Source of the DNA: a virus
Reading direction: 5' to 3' (one strand)
Virus record (IMG/VR): IMGVR_UViG_3300020174_000004
Location: 1 to 64,000 of that record
DNA length: 64,000 bases
A program made the translations under genes and the position numbers. Shown here piece after piece: positions 14,372 through 63,039 of this stretch. The first letter of the stretch is position 1. The number at the start of each line of letters is the position of its first letter. Under the pieces are notes generated by a model, which saw only the letters and a program-made list of their open reading frames with translations, made no database searches and was not told where the DNA came from.

Positions 14372-15514
14372 ATGGCTCGTCGTACATCATTAATTCAGCG
14401 TAAACAAAAAGAAGTCCGTAAAACAAAGACCGAAAATTACCTGATTAATCTAAAGTATCTTGGCGACGAGCCATCTTTTGTTGGTGAAGTCACTTCTTCA
14501 CAGTATGGAAAAGCTCTGACATGGTATAACTATATGTGTACCACTTCAGATGCAAGAGAATATCTTGAAACTTATCTTAAGAATCAAGCTAGAACTGCAG
14601 AATTAAAAACTTTTAAGAAAGTCAAAGATACTTGGGTTCCTACAACTGCTGCTTGGGTTGCTAGACTTATTAATCGTGGATATGCATTACCAGAAGAAGC
14701 AAGGCCATTTCTTGAAAAGTCACTAAAGGAAGCACTATCTAAATCAGAAGATGATGTGCAGGAATTGGCAGAAGAAAAAAAAGAAACTGTTAATATTCAA
14801 AAGAAAATAAACGATAAGACATCTGATATTATTGCTGAAATTGAATCAATAATTGATGAACACATCTTTAAAGATGGTGATATGAAATTTTCATTATATG
14901 ATTGGCTTAAAGCAAATGATATTCCATCAGTGTATTGTCCTAGAATAGCAGAATTCTATAGACCATGGTTGGTAGAATTATGTGATGCATATATTGGAAA
15001 AGATGCAGATCTTAAAGAAGGATATTCATATCTAAGTAAAAAACAACTGAAACAAAGAGTTGACTTTTTTAATCGTCTTGTTGAAGATGCAGAACGTTAT
15101 GGTACAAATGTTAAAAAAGCTAGAGCACCACGTAAAAAGAAACCTGTTTCTATAGAGAAAAAACTAAAGAACTTTAAGTTCCAAAAAGAAGATACAAACT
15201 TTAAGATTGCATCAGTTTCTCCTGATAAAATTGTTGGATGTAATGAACTCTGGACATTCAATACAAAATATAAAACATTAACCGTGTTTAGAGCACAAGG
15301 TCCTGCAGGTCTAGATATTAATCGAACTTCTATTATTGGATATGATGAATCTAGTTCTATGACAAAAAGAACAGGTCGTAAACCAGAATATTTTATTGAC
15401 AAAGTTCTAAATGGTGGTAAAATAGTATTAAGAAAACTTATGGATGAAGCAAAAGGAGAAGCATCTCTAGCATTTAGAATAAACGAAAATACAATTCTAC
15501 TTAAAATAACATAG
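14372..15514 (+). CDS. Conserved T4-like hypothetical protein
   Basis: 380 aa; ALTWYNY, LWTFNTKYK, RINENTILLK. Confidence 0.8.
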   Translation: MARRTSLIQRKQKEVRKTKTENYLINLKYLGDEPSFVGEVTSSQYGKALTWYNYMCTTSDAREYLETYLKNQARTAELKTFKKVKDTWVPTTAAWVARLINRGYALPEEARPFLEKSLKEALSKSEDDVQELAEEKKETVNIQKKINDKTSDIIAEIESIIDEHIFKDGDMKFSLYDWLKANDIPSVYCPRIAEFYRPWLVELCDAYIGKDADLKEGYSYLSKKQLKQRVDFFNRLVEDAERYGTNVKKARAPRKKKPVSIEKKLKNFKFQKEDTNFKIASVSPDKIVGCNELWTFNTKYKTLTVFRAQGPAGLDINRTSIIGYDESSSMTKRTGRKPEYFIDKVLNGGKIVLRKLMDEAKGEASLAFRINENTILLKIT

Positions 15515-15524
15515 GAGAATAAAA

Positions 15525-15710
15525 ATGGCTGGTGTAAAGACTCGTAAAGGTGATGTGGTAAAACAGAAAGTACGCATGTTGCATGGTAAAGTTGTAAAGC
15601 CTGTAGCATATGGTGTTAAGATGAAGATTGTTGGTGAAATTGATGGCGTTATGGTAGTTGACGCAAATGGCAAACCAATCCCCTTTAAGAGTATTGGTGA
15701 ACTGGTATAA
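15525..15710 (+). CDS. Small basic hypothetical protein
   Basis: 61 aa, AGGAG RBS. Confidence 0.7.
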   Translation: MAGVKTRKGDVVKQKVRMLHGKVVKPVAYGVKMKIVGEIDGVMVVDANGKPIPFKSIGELV

Positions 15711-15713
15711 ATA
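15706..15713 (+). promoter_or_regulatory. T4-type late promoter upstream of tmRNA
   Basis: TATAAATA directly before the tmRNA locus. Confidence 0.75.
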
Positions 15714-15728
15714 GTTTGTTATCGTTTT

Positions 15729-15999
15729 ATTATCAACGAAATGGCGGTTGATAATTATATGGAAATATATAAAGTATTTGCGGACCCGGCTCTCGGATGC
15801 CGGCACCTCCACCAATAAATTTTTATGGGGGTGAAAGGGATCGACGTGGTATGTAATATATTTCAAGTCATTCGGGTGGAAACTCCGTTAACGTAACAAA
15901 AAACTATAGGTGCCAACGATAATGTTGCTCCTCGTTACGCTCTAGCAGCCTAGCATGAGTTTTCGGTGGGTTTGACTTGGAAACAGAATAAACCCACCA
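15729..15999 (+). ncRNA. ssrA: Circularly permuted (two-piece) tmRNA, tag ANDNVAPRYALAA; outer ends approximate
   Basis: T-arm CCGGC/GCCGG and CACCTCC-A-CCA ending 15814 precede a 12-nt spacer and GGGGGTGAAAGGGATCGAC at 15827; acceptor stem has G3-U70; tag frame 15912-15953. Confidence 0.93.
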
Positions 16000-16003
16000 C
16001 TTT
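15965..16003 (+). terminator. 3' hairpin of tmRNA coding piece, possible terminator
   Basis: GGTGGGTTT...AAACCCACC followed by ACTTT. Confidence 0.55.
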
Positions 16004-16019: not shown

Positions 16020-16364
16020 GTGTACAAGATACTTACAGTCCTTCTACTTTTGTTTAGCACTGCGGCAATAGCAGAAGAAAAGAAAATAGAAGAACCAACA
16101 TGTGTTCCATTCGTATTTGCGTTTAACATGTTGAGAGAAGCTAAGTATGCTCCGTTCATGAGAAAACGGGGTGATACAAGAGTCGATGAAATAATATATT
16201 CCACAAAAACAAAAAGAGTGATTCATATCTGGTATTTTCAGGCAGACAAAACTGCAATGCCTATATCACTCTGTATTGGTAAAACATATGAAGGTTTCGA
16301 TATAACTTCTGATTTCATGATGGCTATTAAAGAGTTCATCATAAATCCAGAGGTGCCATTGTGA
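16020..16364 (+). CDS. Exported hypothetical protein
   Basis: Signal peptide MYKILTVLLLLFSTAAIA; two Cys. Confidence 0.7.
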   Translation: MYKILTVLLLLFSTAAIAEEKKIEEPTCVPFVFAFNMLREAKYAPFMRKRGDTRVDEIIYSTKTKRVIHIWYFQADKTAMPISLCIGKTYEGFDITSDFMMAIKEFIINPEVPL

Positions 16365-16862: not shown

Positions 16863-16874
16863 TTGGAGAATATA

Positions 16875-17237
16875 ATGAAAGATACGTGGGGCTATCATCT
16901 ATTACTAGATTGTTCAAATGGTAATCTAGAAAAAATATCATCTAAGGATAACGTATACAACTTTGTAAAAGAACTTGTTGTTGCGATTGATATGAAAACA
17001 TTCGGCGAGCCATGGATCGAAAGATTCGCAACCCACGATCTTTCAAAGTCTGGCATTTCATTTTGTCAGATGATCGAAACTTCAAATATCACAGGTCATT
17101 TTGTTGATAAGAATGGAAACTTCTATATTGACGTGTTTTCATGCAAGCCATTTGATGAAAGCATTGTAGTTGATGTAGTTGATAAGTACTTCTCTCCTGA
17201 GAAGGTTAGGATTCACTTTATTTCCAGGGATGCATAA
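16875..17237 (+). CDS. speD: Pyruvoyl-dependent S-adenosylmethionine decarboxylase-like protein
   Basis: WGYHLLLDC, IETSNITGH self-cleavage region, YIDVFSCKPF. Confidence 0.85.
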   Translation: MKDTWGYHLLLDCSNGNLEKISSKDNVYNFVKELVVAIDMKTFGEPWIERFATHDLSKSGISFCQMIETSNITGHFVDKNGNFYIDVFSCKPFDESIVVDVVDKYFSPEKVRIHFISRDA

Positions 17238-17238
17238 T

Positions 17239-17436
17239 ATGCTTAATAAAGAACTCTATACGGATTCAATGCCATTTAATGGTTATTCCATAGATTTCCT
17301 AATTAAAACAATTTTTGAATATGAACTTAAAAACAATTTGACTATCAAACATATTGAAGGTAATGATAATGAAACAAATGTTGTCATTACCTATTTTGAA
17401 CAAAGAATTAAAGAAATAAAGGAAAATTATTCATGA
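17239..17436 (+). CDS. Hypothetical protein
   Basis: ATG 17239 just after the speD stop; overlaps gp33 start. Confidence 0.55.
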   Translation: MLNKELYTDSMPFNGYSIDFLIKTIFEYELKNNLTIKHIEGNDNETNVVITYFEQRIKEIKENYS

Positions 17437-17672
17437 GTAATGTGATTGATTTCTTTAGTTCCAGTACAACTTTTGCACAAGATATTGAAAAACTTAATAA
17501 GGATTCCGGTATTGAATATATTGATGCAATTGTTCAATGGTGTGAAAAGCACCAATTGGAAGTAGAGTATGCAGCAAATATGATTAAAAAGGATCCAGTA
17601 CTTAAAGCAAAGGTTCAAGTAGAAGCAGAAAATCTAAATTTCATCAAGAGGCCAAGTCGCCTACCAATTTAA
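17433..17672 (+). CDS. 33: Late transcription co-activator gp33
   Basis: YIDAIV.WCE, LKAKVQVEAENLNFI; gp33-gp59-gp32 synteny. Confidence 0.85.
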   Translation: MSNVIDFFSSSTTFAQDIEKLNKDSGIEYIDAIVQWCEKHQLEVEYAANMIKKDPVLKAKVQVEAENLNFIKRPSRLPI

Positions 17673-17679
17673 AACCGCC

Positions 17680-18168
17680 ATGGGAGGTCAAATGAAGATA
17701 ATAACAAGAGGCCAACCAACTAAAGTAAACAGAAGTTTATGTAAAAAAGCTATCAAATGGTATGCTGAAAAGTTAATACCAGAAAGAAAGCTTAAGAATA
17801 AAATTATAAGAGTTCAATTTGAAAAAGAGCTCTTAAAAAAGCATGGTATATTTGGTGAATGCTTTGATGATGATCAAGAAAAACATACATATGATATTAT
17901 TATGGATTCCGCACTTCCAAAAACTCAAATGCTTACAGCATTAGCGCACGAAGTAACTCATATAAAACAATTCATTAATGGTGAACTTAAAAATATGAGT
18001 GGCGCATTCTGTAAATGGAATGGTATTAAAGTTAATTATGAAGAAATTGAGTACTGGGATCATCCATGGGAAATTGATGCTCATGGGAGAGAAAAAGGTC
18101 TTTACTATAGATTTTTAGATTCTTTAAAGAGAAAGAAGAATGATGTCAGCGTTCGAGTGTTATCGTGA
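17680..18168 (+). CDS. Zincin-like metallopeptidase
   Basis: ALAHEVTHIKQ (HExxH), YWDHPWEIDA. Confidence 0.8.
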   Translation: MGGQMKIITRGQPTKVNRSLCKKAIKWYAEKLIPERKLKNKIIRVQFEKELLKKHGIFGECFDDDQEKHTYDIIMDSALPKTQMLTALAHEVTHIKQFINGELKNMSGAFCKWNGIKVNYEEIEYWDHPWEIDAHGREKGLYYRFLDSLKRKKNDVSVRVLS

Positions 18169-18721
18169 ATACATTGCATTGAAACAACACTTCACACAAA
18201 AGAATTATGACTATATCAAATATAATGGAAAAGTAAAAACAGCAACGGAGAAGAGCTTTAACGCTAGACGTGATAAGCTCTTCTTTATGAAACTCGCTAA
18301 ACATCAGGATCCAAAAAACTTCTTGATTGCTAATATGATCGAGACTTCCAAGACTTGGATTGGTGAACTTGCATATAATGAAGAAGCTCAAAAAAGATAT
18401 ATTGATTGGTCTAAACGAATTCAATCTTTGACATATAATTTCAAGATTGATATAAATAAGTTAAATGAGAATTTTGATTCTAATTTTGTAATTGAAGATT
18501 ACTCTCATCCTTATGCGTTGAAGTTATATCTTCAAAAAGAAATTAGTCTTGAAACACTAGTAATCCTTTTGGATCTAGTGCGTTGTTTCAAATATTGGAA
18601 CAACAAAATGGATGGAGACCCGATCTGGGATGAAATATCATTAAGGATCTTAAAGTACCGTCCATTTTTAAACTATGATGTTAATAAACTAAAGCAAATG
18701 GTTATTGACAAATTTGAATAA
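18140..18721 (+). CDS. 59: Helicase loader gp59
   Basis: YIALKQHF..KNYDYIKYNGK, RRDKLFF, ISLETL. Confidence 0.9.
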   Translation: MMSAFECYREYIALKQHFTQKNYDYIKYNGKVKTATEKSFNARRDKLFFMKLAKHQDPKNFLIANMIETSKTWIGELAYNEEAQKRYIDWSKRIQSLTYNFKIDINKLNENFDSNFVIEDYSHPYALKLYLQKEISLETLVILLDLVRCFKYWNNKMDGDPIWDEISLRILKYRPFLNYDVNKLKQMVIDKFE

Positions 18722-18786: not shown

Positions 18787-19674
18787 ATGAATTCATTCGC
18801 ACAGCTAAAAACATCTAAAAATTCTATGGAGAAGCTCCTTGACCAAATGAAGAAGGAGAATCCATCTGCAGGAAAGAAGGTCGGAGATGACCGATTCTGG
18901 ACTCCAACAGTTGATAAGGCAGGTAATGGTTCAGCCATTATTCGTTTTCTTCCACCATCAAATGGTGAAGATACTCCTTTTGTTCGACTCTGGGATCATG
19001 GGTTCCAAGGCCCAACCGGTCTTTGGTACATCGAAAATTCTCTAACATCAATTGGTAAGCCTGATCCAGTTTCTGAGTATAATTCTCAGCTTTGGAATTC
19101 TGGTATTGAATCCAACAAGGATATTGTTCGCAAGCAAAAGCGACGTTTGTATTTTGTTGCTAATATCTATGTTGTAACAGATCCAGGTAACCCAGATAAT
19201 GAAGGTAAGATATTCCTTTATAAGTTTGGTAAGAAGATCTTTGATAAGATGAAGGATGTAATGGAACCTTCATTTGAAGATGAAGAACCAATGAATCCTT
19301 TTGACTTCTGGGAAGGCGCAAATTTCCGTCTACGTATTCGAAATGTAGAAGGTTATCGTAATTATGATAAGTCAGATTTTGGTAAGTCTGGTCCATTGCT
19401 TGACGATGATGAAAAGCTTGAAGAGATCTGGAAGACTCAGTATCCTTTACAGCCTTTTGTTAATGCAAGTAACTTTAAGAGCTATGAAGATCTAAAGAAG
19501 AAGCTTGAAAAAGTACTTGGCCTTGATGGGACTGGTCGTGCGCCAATGAAGGCTGAAGAATATGATGAGGATCCTGCGCCAACATTTAAGGCTAAGGAAC
19601 CAGCCATGTCTATGGCATCATCTAATGATGAGGATGACGGTCTTGAATTCTTTAAGAATCTAGCCAATCGCTAA
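18787..19674 (+). CDS. 32: Single-stranded DNA-binding protein gp32
   Basis: DDRFW, GNGSAIIRFLP, HGFQG, FGKKIFDK, PFDFWEGANF, acidic tail. Confidence 0.95.
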   Translation: MNSFAQLKTSKNSMEKLLDQMKKENPSAGKKVGDDRFWTPTVDKAGNGSAIIRFLPPSNGEDTPFVRLWDHGFQGPTGLWYIENSLTSIGKPDPVSEYNSQLWNSGIESNKDIVRKQKRRLYFVANIYVVTDPGNPDNEGKIFLYKFGKKIFDKMKDVMEPSFEDEEPMNPFDFWEGANFRLRIRNVEGYRNYDKSDFGKSGPLLDDDEKLEEIWKTQYPLQPFVNASNFKSYEDLKKKLEKVLGLDGTGRAPMKAEEYDEDPAPTFKAKEPAMSMASSNDEDDGLEFFKNLANR

Positions 19675-60676: not shown

Positions 60677-61865
60677 GTTTGGTTATTATCAGTATAATAA
60701 TCAAATATTTTCTACTAAAGAAGATATGTTTGATTATATTTTAGAAAACTGTAATGATGAACAAATAAAAAATATTCCAAATACATTATATAATTTTCAT
60801 AATGAAGTCTTTCAATCTATAGATTGGAGGATAAATCCTACATTTTCAATAAACGAATTATATAAGATAAGAGCGCAACAATTAAGAGATGAATATGATT
60901 ATCTCATATTACTTTTTTCTGGCGGTGCTGATTCCACTCAAGTTTTAAATACATTTCTAGAAAATGATATATTCATTGATGAGATACAAAATTATAATTA
61001 TGATAAGGCACTAAAGAGTGTTGATAGAGATATTTTTAATAAATTTCCAAGTATTAAGATATTATTAGAATATGAATATGCTGCTAAACCAATTTTAAAA
61101 AAAGTTAAGCAAAAAAGTCCTAATACAAAAATAACATTTGTAGATACATCAGATTATGCGTATGATCAAATTGTTAATAAGAAATTTGATTTTCTTGGAA
61201 ACAAATATCATAATAGCCATACATTGCTATCAAAAGCATATAGATCATTTACACCTTATACTGCAATATACAATCAACAGAATAATAATAAAAATAAAGT
61301 TGCTTTAATAAGAGGAAATGAAAAACCAAATCTAAGAATGGACAGAGAATGGAATCTTTATTTTACATTTCAAGATTTTTTATATCCAAATGTAAAATTA
61401 TCAAGAATGGGGTACACTGATCCAAATATAGAAATTGAAGATTTTTATTGGTCTAAAGATATGCCTCTAATACCAGTAAAACAGTCTCATTTAATATTAG
61501 ATAAGATGAAAAATGATAATGAATATTTGAAAACTGTATTATCTTTTTTTGTTGGTGGGAAGAGTCCAATTCAACAAAATTTTGATATGCATAATAAAAC
61601 TGTATTTTTTAAAAGAAATTATATTGATCCTGTAATATATCCAAATTGGCAAAAGACATTTTCCGCAGAAAAAATTGGCAATGTAAATCCAGAATTTGAA
61701 ATTTTTAAAAATTTAAATTATATAGTGTATGGATATGATCAAATGAAATCTCACGGAGAATATATTCGTGAAAAATATAAAAGATTACCAATTAAATTTA
61801 TTGGCGGTTTGTTAGAGACACAGAACTATCTAATAGGTAATTTAAAAAGTCTTATCTTCAAGTAG
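60636..61865 (+). CDS. PP-loop (adenine nucleotide alpha-hydrolase) family protein
   Basis: RAQQLRDEYDYLILLFSGGADS, GNEKP, EDFYW, KQSH. Confidence 0.75.
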   Translation: MSILIMNGNLYNPKFGYYQYNNQIFSTKEDMFDYILENCNDEQIKNIPNTLYNFHNEVFQSIDWRINPTFSINELYKIRAQQLRDEYDYLILLFSGGADSTQVLNTFLENDIFIDEIQNYNYDKALKSVDRDIFNKFPSIKILLEYEYAAKPILKKVKQKSPNTKITFVDTSDYAYDQIVNKKFDFLGNKYHNSHTLLSKAYRSFTPYTAIYNQQNNNKNKVALIRGNEKPNLRMDREWNLYFTFQDFLYPNVKLSRMGYTDPNIEIEDFYWSKDMPLIPVKQSHLILDKMKNDNEYLKTVLSFFVGGKSPIQQNFDMHNKTVFFKRNYIDPVIYPNWQKTFSAEKIGNVNPEFEIFKNLNYIVYGYDQMKSHGEYIREKYKRLPIKFIGGLLETQNYLIGNLKSLIFK

Positions 61866-62216
61866 TTCTATCATATTTCTATTTTGAAATATTTCTTTCG
61901 TTACTCTATTATAATTTGATGTGTTTTTTGATCTTAAAAGATTATAATATGGTGTTTTCACATTAGTTTGATTTGTATTTGGGTCTCTGAAGTTATTCAA
62001 ACTTTTAGCATCATCGATTGTTTCTATATTTGAATATGTTAATACGGTAATAGAATCGTTTGATGTGTATGAAGTTGTATAGTTTTTTATAGAAAGGTAA
62101 TAGTTTAGTTGCCCATTAAAAGATTTTGATACCTCTTTTTCAGATTCGGACCATTCAGATAATGGCACTATTGAAGAATTTGAGTTTAAGTATCTGGTAA
62201 TAACTAAATCGTACAT
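61842..62216 (-). CDS. Hypothetical protein on minus strand
   Basis: 124 aa; GGGG RBS-like run and minus-strand TATAAATA boxes upstream. Confidence 0.6.
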   Translation of the reverse strand: MYDLVITRYLNSNSSIVPLSEWSESEKEVSKSFNGQLNYYLSIKNYTTSYTSNDSITVLTYSNIETIDDAKSLNNFRDPNTNQTNVKTPYYNLLRSKNTSNYNRVTKEIFQNRNMIELLEDKTF

Positions 62217-62220
62217 TTAG

Positions 62221-62293
62221 ACCCCTATAAATATCTTACAATATCAATTTTTATATTTATAAATAGATAAAACACATAACTATTTATAGGGGT
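62221..62293. promoter_or_regulatory. Palindromic divergent late-promoter cassette
   Basis: 13-bp perfect inverted repeat ACCCCTATAAATA/TATTTATAGGGGT around central palindrome TATTTATAAATA; four TATAAATA boxes. Confidence 0.8.
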
Positions 62294-62298
62294 TTCTA

Positions 62299-63039
62299 AT
62301 GGCCGTACCTACATCCAGAGCAGAATTTAAGGAATATTGCCTTAGAAATCTAGGCAAGCCTGTTATAGAAATCAATGTTGATGATGATCAAGTAGATGAT
62401 CGCATTGATGAGGCTTTAAAATACTACTGGGACTATCATTTTGATGGTTCAGAAAAAACATATTATAAGCATGTTATAACGGCTGATGATAAAACCAACA
62501 AATATATAACTATGCCAGAAAATATAATTGGTGTAGTAAATTTATTTGATATTGGAAATAATGTTGGAACAAATAATCTTTTTAATATTCGTTATCAAAT
62601 TGCTTTAAATGATTTATATACACTCACTTCTGTATCTATGATTCCTTATTTTATGGCAATGCAGCATATTCAATTTTTAGAATATATGCTAGTTGGAAAA
62701 CAGCCATTAAGATATAATAGACATAGAGACATTCTTCATATTGATATGGATTGGGATAAGGTAGATGTTGGTCAATATTTAATAGTTGAAGCATATCAAG
62801 TAGTAGATCCTGATATCTATACCGATGCATGGGGTGATAGATGGCTAGCCAGATATTGTACTGCTCTTGTAAAAAGACAATGGGGTAATAATTTAAAGAA
62901 ATATAATGGAATGCAACTTCCTGGTGGTCTAACTTTTAATGGTCAACAGATCTATAACGAATCAATTGATGAAATCAATGAATTAGAAAAAGAAATGATT
63001 TCATCATTTAGCTTACCGGTTACGGATATGATAGGATAA
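62299..63039 (+). CDS. 13: Neck protein gp13
   Basis: YCLRNLGKPVIEINVDDDQVDDR, YHFDG, KRQWGNNLKKY.G.QLPGG. Confidence 0.95.
   Translation: MAVPTSRAEFKEYCLRNLGKPVIEINVDDDQVDDRIDEALKYYWDYHFDGSEKTYYKHVITADDKTNKYITMPENIIGVVNLFDIGNNVGTNNLFNIRYQIALNDLYTLTSVSMIPYFMAMQHIQFLEYMLVGKQPLRYNRHRDILHIDMDWDKVDVGQYLIVEAYQVVDPDIYTDAWGDRWLARYCTALVKRQWGNNLKKYNGMQLPGGLTFNGQQIYNESIDEINELEKEMISSFSLPVTDMIG

Follow-up and report, generated by a model that had tools for sequence, protein, structure and literature searches.

Background

A working two-piece tmRNA was demonstrated in Caulobacter (Keiler et al. 2000, as cited in PMC9004378). Phages carry such genes as well. Buchholz et al. 2022 (PMC9004378) described a two-piece ssrA of the alphaproteobacterial type in Melnitz, a phage of OM43 (Methylophilales). 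They place it downstream of an early promoter and report a glutamine riboswitch at its 3' end. Their survey counts 53 two-piece tmRNAs among 402 tmRNA-bearing phage genomes, 50 of the 53 being aquatic, and reports a permuted tmRNA for 17 of 47 related contigs (PMC9004378). A tmRNA database of 2025 holds 79 unique phage tmRNA sequences. In our search of the literature we found no experimental work on the function of phage tmRNAs, whether on expression, processing or tagging by the two-piece ones.

This work concerns one such gene in a 64,000-nucleotide stretch of viral DNA (the window), positions 1 to 64,000 of IMG/VR record IMGVR_UViG_3300020174_000004. The record is an uncultured T4-like aquatic phage of 99,673 bases with an estimated completeness of 59% and a GC content of about 32%, and the phage is a T4-like myophage. 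An earlier note, made from the letters of the window, had read a two-piece tmRNA there under a late promoter and had drawn conclusions about its host. We will argue that the gene is what it was taken to be, that its T-loop explains why a standard search program misses it, and that what was said of its promoter and host needs qualification.

Identity of the gene

Both Rfam covariance models match the gene over their full length and the reading frame is intact, which bears out the claim of a phage-encoded alpha-type two-piece tmRNA with an ANDN...LAA tag. The model tmRNA_permuted (RF04321) scores 113 bits against a cut-off of 47 (E 3e-21) over 15750-15953, covering model positions 1-213. The model alpha_tmRNA (RF01849), which the earlier note had named as a check, scores 95.3 bits, above its curated cut-off of 50 (E 1e-24), over 15681-15998, model positions 1-355, and is the top of its clan for this gene. 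The permuted order can be read directly from the letters, just as had been proposed: the T-arm, the acceptor 3' strand and the CCA that ends at 15814 precede the acceptor 5' strand, which begins at 15827. The interval 15750-15998 on the plus strand is a complete circularly permuted alpha-type tmRNA gene carried by a phage. Its features and those around it are collected in Table 1.

We sampled about 150 alphaproteobacterial genomes; most score 120-170, and the 113 bits of the phage gene fall below nearly all of them. The gene is genuine nonetheless, and on its sequence it probably works in the cell. What is directly supported here is the identity of the gene, its completeness, its conserved structure and its conserved genomic position. 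Covarying stems, conserved tags in relatives and a resume-codon geometry common to most aligned relatives all argue that it is maintained and probably working.

Table 1. Features of the permuted tmRNA gene and its surroundings; positions are those of the window.
Feature	Position	Strand	Description and basis
Genes upstream of the tmRNA gene			nrdA, nrdB, methyltransferase, glycosyltransferase, exonuclease, PhoH
TATAAATA motif	15706-15713	+	candidate T4-type late promoter; overlaps the stop codon of ORF 15525-15710
Leader hairpin	15729-15755	+	9-bp perfect stem, 9-nt loop; upstream of/overlapping the start of the covariance match
Acceptor piece	15750-15814	+	upstream P2 arm, T-arm, acceptor 3' strand, discriminator A, encoded CCA; covariance model
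P2 upstream arm (inter-piece helix)	15762-15781	+	duplex folding, inverted repeat
T-arm	15786-15803	+	5-bp stem, 15786-15790 with 15799-15803; 8-nt loop UCUCGGAU at 15791-15798
Acceptor 3' strand, discriminator A, CCA	15804-15810 (7 nt), 15811, 15812-15814	+	
Intervening segment	15815-15826	+	12 nt, A/T only; predicted removal in maturation; no nested gene
Coding piece	15827-15998	+	acceptor 5' strand, D-loop-like GG..UCGAC, P2 arm, PK1 hairpin, tag frame, 3' hairpin; both models
Acceptor 5' strand	15827-15833	+	D-loop-like GG..UCGAC next
P2 downstream arm	15846-15864	+	
Hairpin at PK1 position	15873-15887	+	4-bp stem, 7-nt loop; Rfam alignment
Tag frame	15912-15953	+	ANDNVAPRYALAA then TAG stop; translation
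3'-terminal hairpin	15965-15998	+	9-bp stem, loop with invariant AACAGAA; then ACTTTAT, no real U-run
Genes downstream of the tmRNA gene			small ORFs, S-adenosylmethionine decarboxylase-like gene, gp33, gp59, gp32
gp33	17433-17672		late-transcription protein gene
gp59	18140-18721		
gp32	18787-19674		

Structure of the RNA

The acceptor stem forms all seven of its pairs, including the G3-U70 pair, and the discriminator A and the encoded CCA are in place, as the earlier reading had it. In 12 phage relatives the same pairs persist, two positions showing compensatory changes, and across these relatives the T-stem covaries along with the acceptor stem. The spacer of 12 nucleotides, A and T only, is likewise there in the sequence as claimed. 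The true 5' end of the acceptor piece may lie nearer 15719.

The inter-piece helix P2 had also been proposed, and its core is a perfect run of 9 bp between 15762-15770 and 15856-15864. Seven further pairs, of which four are G-U, extend it between 15774-15781 and 15846-15852, with a single bulge. Among the relatives the arms of P2 have diverged too far to be aligned, so we folded the duplex in each sequence separately, and each relative forms an equivalent of P2 from a different sequence. The consensus fold of the MAFFT alignment gave only the T-arm and the acceptor stem. P2 is absent from the unconstrained minimum-energy fold of the gene, which has a z-score of only -2.1.

The hairpin at the 3' end is the other well conserved element. 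Its AACAGAA loop is invariant among the phage relatives and all five of its aligned stem pairs show compensatory changes. We searched the 3' end of the tmRNA for a canonical terminator and found none. A complementarity of 10 nucleotides between 15861-15870 and the loop of this hairpin is, by eye, absent in L007 and we take it as chance. Three relatives (L122, L029 and L012) have an extra hairpin of about 27 nucleotides after the PK1 hairpin, at columns 165-193 of alignment A1.

The tag that the earlier note had read is confirmed by translation of the frame, ANDNVAPRYALAA followed by an intact stop, with both the ANDN start and the LAA end preserved. GCC (Ala) is the resume codon, and the UAG-GU before it has the geometry of UAA-NU-GCA in the relatives. 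A stop-like triplet, two bases and then GCN ahead of the resume point is common to most of the aligned relatives. ARAGORN reports tags on eight relatives: seven open with ANDN, AANDN or DNDN, and six end in AA. The exceptions are L042, which fits neither pattern, and L076, which ends in AV.

An eight-nucleotide T-loop

ARAGORN, another check proposed earlier, calls no gene at this locus with default or relaxed settings. Deleting one base of the T-loop in silico restores the call: the program then reports a permuted tmRNA with the same tag. The miss is therefore an artefact of a rule on loop length and not evidence against the gene. ARAGORN is also blind to L122.

The loop, UCUCGGAU, is the sole eight-nucleotide case among 163 parsed permuted tmRNAs, in which the usual length as parsed is 6-7 nucleotides, and the T-stem that carries it is a regular 5 bp. 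The parsed T-loops of viral copies are mostly of the UUCGA type, and 97 of 118 bacterial copies have GGCGGUA.

The eight-nucleotide loop is no assembly error: it recurs in 17 contigs with six covarying versions of the stem. UCUCGGAU together with the acceptor strand CACCUCC is present in three more IMG/VR contigs and 14 metagenome contigs (L278-L294), and the six different T-stems of this set are fully paired and covary. The 17 contigs hold both one-piece and permuted tmRNAs, and several of these genes adjoin tRNA arrays. The same combination of loop and acceptor strand is absent from the 185,579 species genomes that we scanned. With the acceptor strand relaxed, UCUCGGAU appears among cellular genomes only in real tmRNAs of four Chloroflexia MAGs; these tmRNAs score highly and lie on cellular MAG contigs. 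An eight-nucleotide loop is thus compatible with cellular function and is probably tolerated.

One could go further and treat UCUCGGAU with CACCUCC as the marker of a phage-borne tRNA-like module that is found across one-piece and two-piece tmRNAs, an idea we consider rather unlikely. If the loop is selected in phages, for example by evading a host enzyme that recognises the normal T-loop, it would be a phage-specific adaptation of trans-translation; altered use of SmpB or of the ribosome would be another example of such an advantage. It is important to realize that counts of phage tmRNAs based on ARAGORN, such as the published 53, will be too low, as the class with an eight-nucleotide loop is missed.

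Relatives and genomic position

In a distant BLAST search against GenBank phages, the only match to the gene is the annotated SsrA of four Melnitz strains. The permuted junction pattern occurs in more than 120 IMG/VR contigs among the matches listed, and all 14 of the junction contigs that we gave to Rfam are full-length permuted tmRNAs. The closest among the matches listed, L007/L093, are only 74% identical to our gene, and scanning viral contigs for the exact core turned up nothing nearly identical. Since the ssrA of Melnitz is published and many IMG/VR contigs have the permuted junction, the kind is already known, and the phage gene is a divergent further example of it.

The tmRNA gene is placed within a region of early and middle replication genes, and baseplate, fibre and connector genes lie farther along the window. 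We found no tRNA genes in the phage record. In Melnitz the order is PhoH, small ORFs, ssrA, gp33, gp59, thyX, gp32. The order PhoH ... ssrA ... gp33-gp59-gp32 is common to both phages, which argues that the tmRNA is a maintained gene and not debris.

Two of the neighbours deserve a remark of their own. An ORF of 114 amino acids at 16020-16364 (+) begins 22 nucleotides past the 3' hairpin of the tmRNA, with a GTG start and an AAGGA ribosome-binding site. Its N-terminus is hydrophobic and resembles a signal peptide. The ORF matches no PHROG and shows no separate promoter, so it may be transcribed together with the tmRNA precursor. The S-adenosylmethionine decarboxylase-like gene at 16863-17237 (+) matches phrog_3125 (E 2e-28) and sits between the tmRNA and gp33.

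Promoter and leader

The earlier note placed the gene under a late promoter. The TATAAATA motif at 15706 lies about 44 nucleotides upstream of the model start, leaving a leader of about 36 nucleotides between the motif and the model match. It has no -35 box (the best candidate agrees at 3 of 6 positions). TGG stands directly ahead of it, so it can also be read as an extended -10. The window contains 13 copies of TATAAATA where 15.8 are expected; the motif is not enriched, so its count alone is uninformative. Its placement tells more. Nine of the 13 copies lie 20-66 nucleotides upstream of same-strand gene starts, a zone which by rough arithmetic takes up only about 3% of strand positions, and none of them has a -35 box. 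The starts behind these copies include head-closure, head-tail adaptor and fibre-assembly genes. Judged by this placement, TATAAATA acts here in the manner of a T4-type late promoter. At 62226-62288 four overlapping copies, two per strand, stand between the divergent genes 61842-62216 (-) and 62299-63039 (+, the head-tail adaptor), which looks like a back-to-back pair of late promoters.

The relatives are not uniform here. Seven of them, Melnitz included, have TATAAATA only 4-5 nucleotides before the model start, with TTGACA or TTGACT 17-18 nucleotides ahead of it; the loci with TTGACA/TTGACT-N17/18-TATAAATA are L001, L029, L012, L076, L086, L111 and L122. In these relatives the late motif doubles as the -10 box of a sigma-70-type promoter, which suggests both early and late expression. 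L099 and L056 lack a -35 box, as our gene does, and have a distal (C)ATAAATA(A)GTTTG. That the promoter type differs in one syntenic slot, TATAAATA alone or TATAAATA with a -35 box, gives a handle on the timing of ribosome rescue during infection.

The claim of a late promoter can be kept only in part. In its favour are the motif at 15706, the lack of a -35 box there and the presence of gp33. Against it are the early/middle gene region, the sigma-70-type promoters of most relatives and the reading of the Melnitz promoter as early. Late expression of the phage tmRNA is plausible, and from the promoter sequence we lean slightly towards it. There is also a good sigma-70-like site, TTGACA-N16-TAAAAT, at 15396-15423, from which read-through into the tmRNA could occur.

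The minimum-energy fold pairs the leader at 15715-15726 with 15888-15899 (11 bp, one bulge). The shuffle controls for this helix were weak (z -1.1 to -2.0) and we do not claim it. A pairing akin to it, between the leader and the segment from PK1 to the tag, is seen in L099 and L056.

The host

A host among the Alphaproteobacteria had been thought likely in the earlier note, and we find it only weakly implied. The shape of the tag and the alpha model being the best of its clan speak for such a host; the precedent of Melnitz and the lack of a close cellular tmRNA weaken the case. Melnitz infects the OM43 clade, which is not alphaproteobacterial, so an alpha-type ssrA is no proof of an alphaproteobacterial host. 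Many Alphaproteobacteria have the tag shape ANDNxAxxYALAA, among them Rhizobiaceae, Caulobacteraceae, Hyphomonadaceae and Brucella. Nucleotide BLAST against about 150 cellular alpha tmRNA loci returned short core matches only and no close cellular copy, and exact-core scans of the gene found matches in unrelated Rhizobiales. The gp32 is about equally distant (52-55%) from those of cyanophages, of Sinorhizobium phage phiN3 and of Melnitz, and the gene upstream of the tmRNA is weakly related to genes in T4-like phages that infect Alphaproteobacteria, Stenotrophomonas and Pseudomonas.

Function

That there is no smpB in the window had been noted earlier and is correct; we found none in the whole 99.7-kb record either, which is about 59% complete. 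We likewise found no SmpB in Melnitz, whose genome is complete, or in four more phage records that carry a tmRNA, one of them 97% complete. Dependence on the SmpB of the host looks to be the rule for such phages.

We think it quite probable, from the analysis as a whole, that the gene makes a working ssrA tmRNA which uses the RNase P, AlaRS, SmpB and ClpXP of the host. The steps from processing, charging and SmpB use to tagging, and their timing, are drawn here by analogy with Caulobacter. A single precursor would be transcribed from TATAAATA at 15706-15713, by read-through from upstream, or both. Host RNase P would cut 5' of G15827 and 3' trimming would expose the CCA at 15814, with loss of the spacer. 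The 7-bp acceptor stem and P2 would then hold the acceptor piece (to 15814) together with the coding piece (15827 to about 15998). Host AlaRS would charge the RNA through G3-U70, and host SmpB, none being encoded by the phage, would deliver it to ribosomes stalled on broken mRNAs. Translation would resume at the GCC at 15912 and add ANDNVAPRYALAA, whose LAA end would direct the product to ClpXP. What the phage probably gains is a supply of free ribosomes amid heavy mRNA degradation and a high demand for translation. The earlier note had also raised an anti-defence role, a conjecture in which the phage RNA would stand in for host tmRNA or tRNA that defence nucleases have cut; nothing in our analysis speaks for it.

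There are other ways to read the gene. The phage RNA might bind host SmpB, compete with host tmRNA, or both, and so damp or re-route trans-translation, for example by sparing phage proteins the host tag or by switching off host responses that depend on ssrA; useful tagging would then not be its role. A phage without SmpB must draw on the host pool, the altered eight-nucleotide T-loop could change activity on the ribosome, and a tmRNA of mycobacteriophage DS6A that consists of the tRNA-like domain only is reported to inhibit endogenous tmRNA. However, an RNA of this sort has no need of a full tag frame, and yet the resume codon, ANDN, LAA and stop are intact here, a pattern kept in most, although not all, of the relatives. 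The coding piece has also retained its P2, PK1 and 3' hairpin elements. We therefore regard interference with the host system as very unlikely to be what the gene is for.

Buchholz et al. (PMC9004378) put forward for Melnitz the idea that tagging truncated host or early phage proteins directs their proteolysis, so that amino acids are recycled for virions in a nutrient-poor host. The LAA degron end is kept in our gene, and the GC content of about 32%, PhoH and other auxiliary genes are typical of phages of streamlined aquatic hosts. This idea shares its molecular mechanism with the ribosome-rescue reading that we prefer and differs only in the benefit that is selected, which sequence cannot separate; the yield of amino acids from tagged fragments is likely small, and as the main benefit we rate it just as improbable as interference. 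It is hardly credible that the gene came from a host or another phage as a passenger that has lost its function and is now neutral or decaying: the score below most cellular alpha tmRNAs, the odd T-loop, the weak inner P2 and the fact that ssrA is common but not universal in the phage group (17 of 47 related contigs, PMC9004378) would fit it, but all defining elements are intact, the T-loop variant recurs in 17 independent contigs with compensatory stem changes, and synteny with Melnitz is kept despite a gp32 that is only 52% identical. It is the conservation of the whole tag frame and of the coding-piece structure that makes all three of these readings less likely than a working tmRNA.

That phages carry tmRNAs suggests that, in some hosts, stalled ribosomes limit the production of phage. 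The gene described here adds a divergent example and opens no new kind of biology.

Comparison with known tmRNAs

The system most like this one is that of Melnitz. Both are T4-like aquatic myophages with a permuted tmRNA of the alpha type, an ANDN...ALAA tag, an upstream TATAAATA and no SmpB, and in both the ssrA slot comes after PhoH and small ORFs and before gp33, gp59 and gp32. They differ in sequence, since nucleotide similarity between the two genes covers only about 90 nucleotides at 77% and the gp32 proteins are 52% identical. They differ in their promoters too: Melnitz has TTGACA-N17-TATAAATA directly at the gene, whereas the window has no -35 box and a leader of about 36 nucleotides. 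Finally, the Melnitz gene is much longer and has the glutamine riboswitch at its 3' end, while the window, in which Rfam finds no glutamine riboswitch even at E up to 1, has the eight-nucleotide T-loop.

The two-piece tmRNA of Alphaproteobacteria (RF01849) has the same permuted order, G3-U70 acceptor stem, encoded CCA, P2, ANDN...LAA tag and 3' hairpin with an AACAGAA loop. Its spacer is typically 28-46 nucleotides in the bacteria parsed, in contrast to 12 in the phage, and its prevailing T-loop is GGCGGUA, not UCUCGGAU. The location in a phage and the lower bit score of the phage gene also set the two apart. The one-piece tmRNAs of phages, those of the mycobacteriophage Bxz1 group and of Bacillus phage G, are like ours in being phage-borne ssrA genes that rely on host SmpB, and unlike it in their standard gene order and their different hosts. 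Some uncultured one-piece phage tmRNAs nevertheless share the eight-nucleotide T-loop and the acceptor strand of the window gene. What is particular to the window gene is the promoter with TATAAATA only, the lack of a glutamine riboswitch, the eight-nucleotide T-loop and the minimal, empty spacer.
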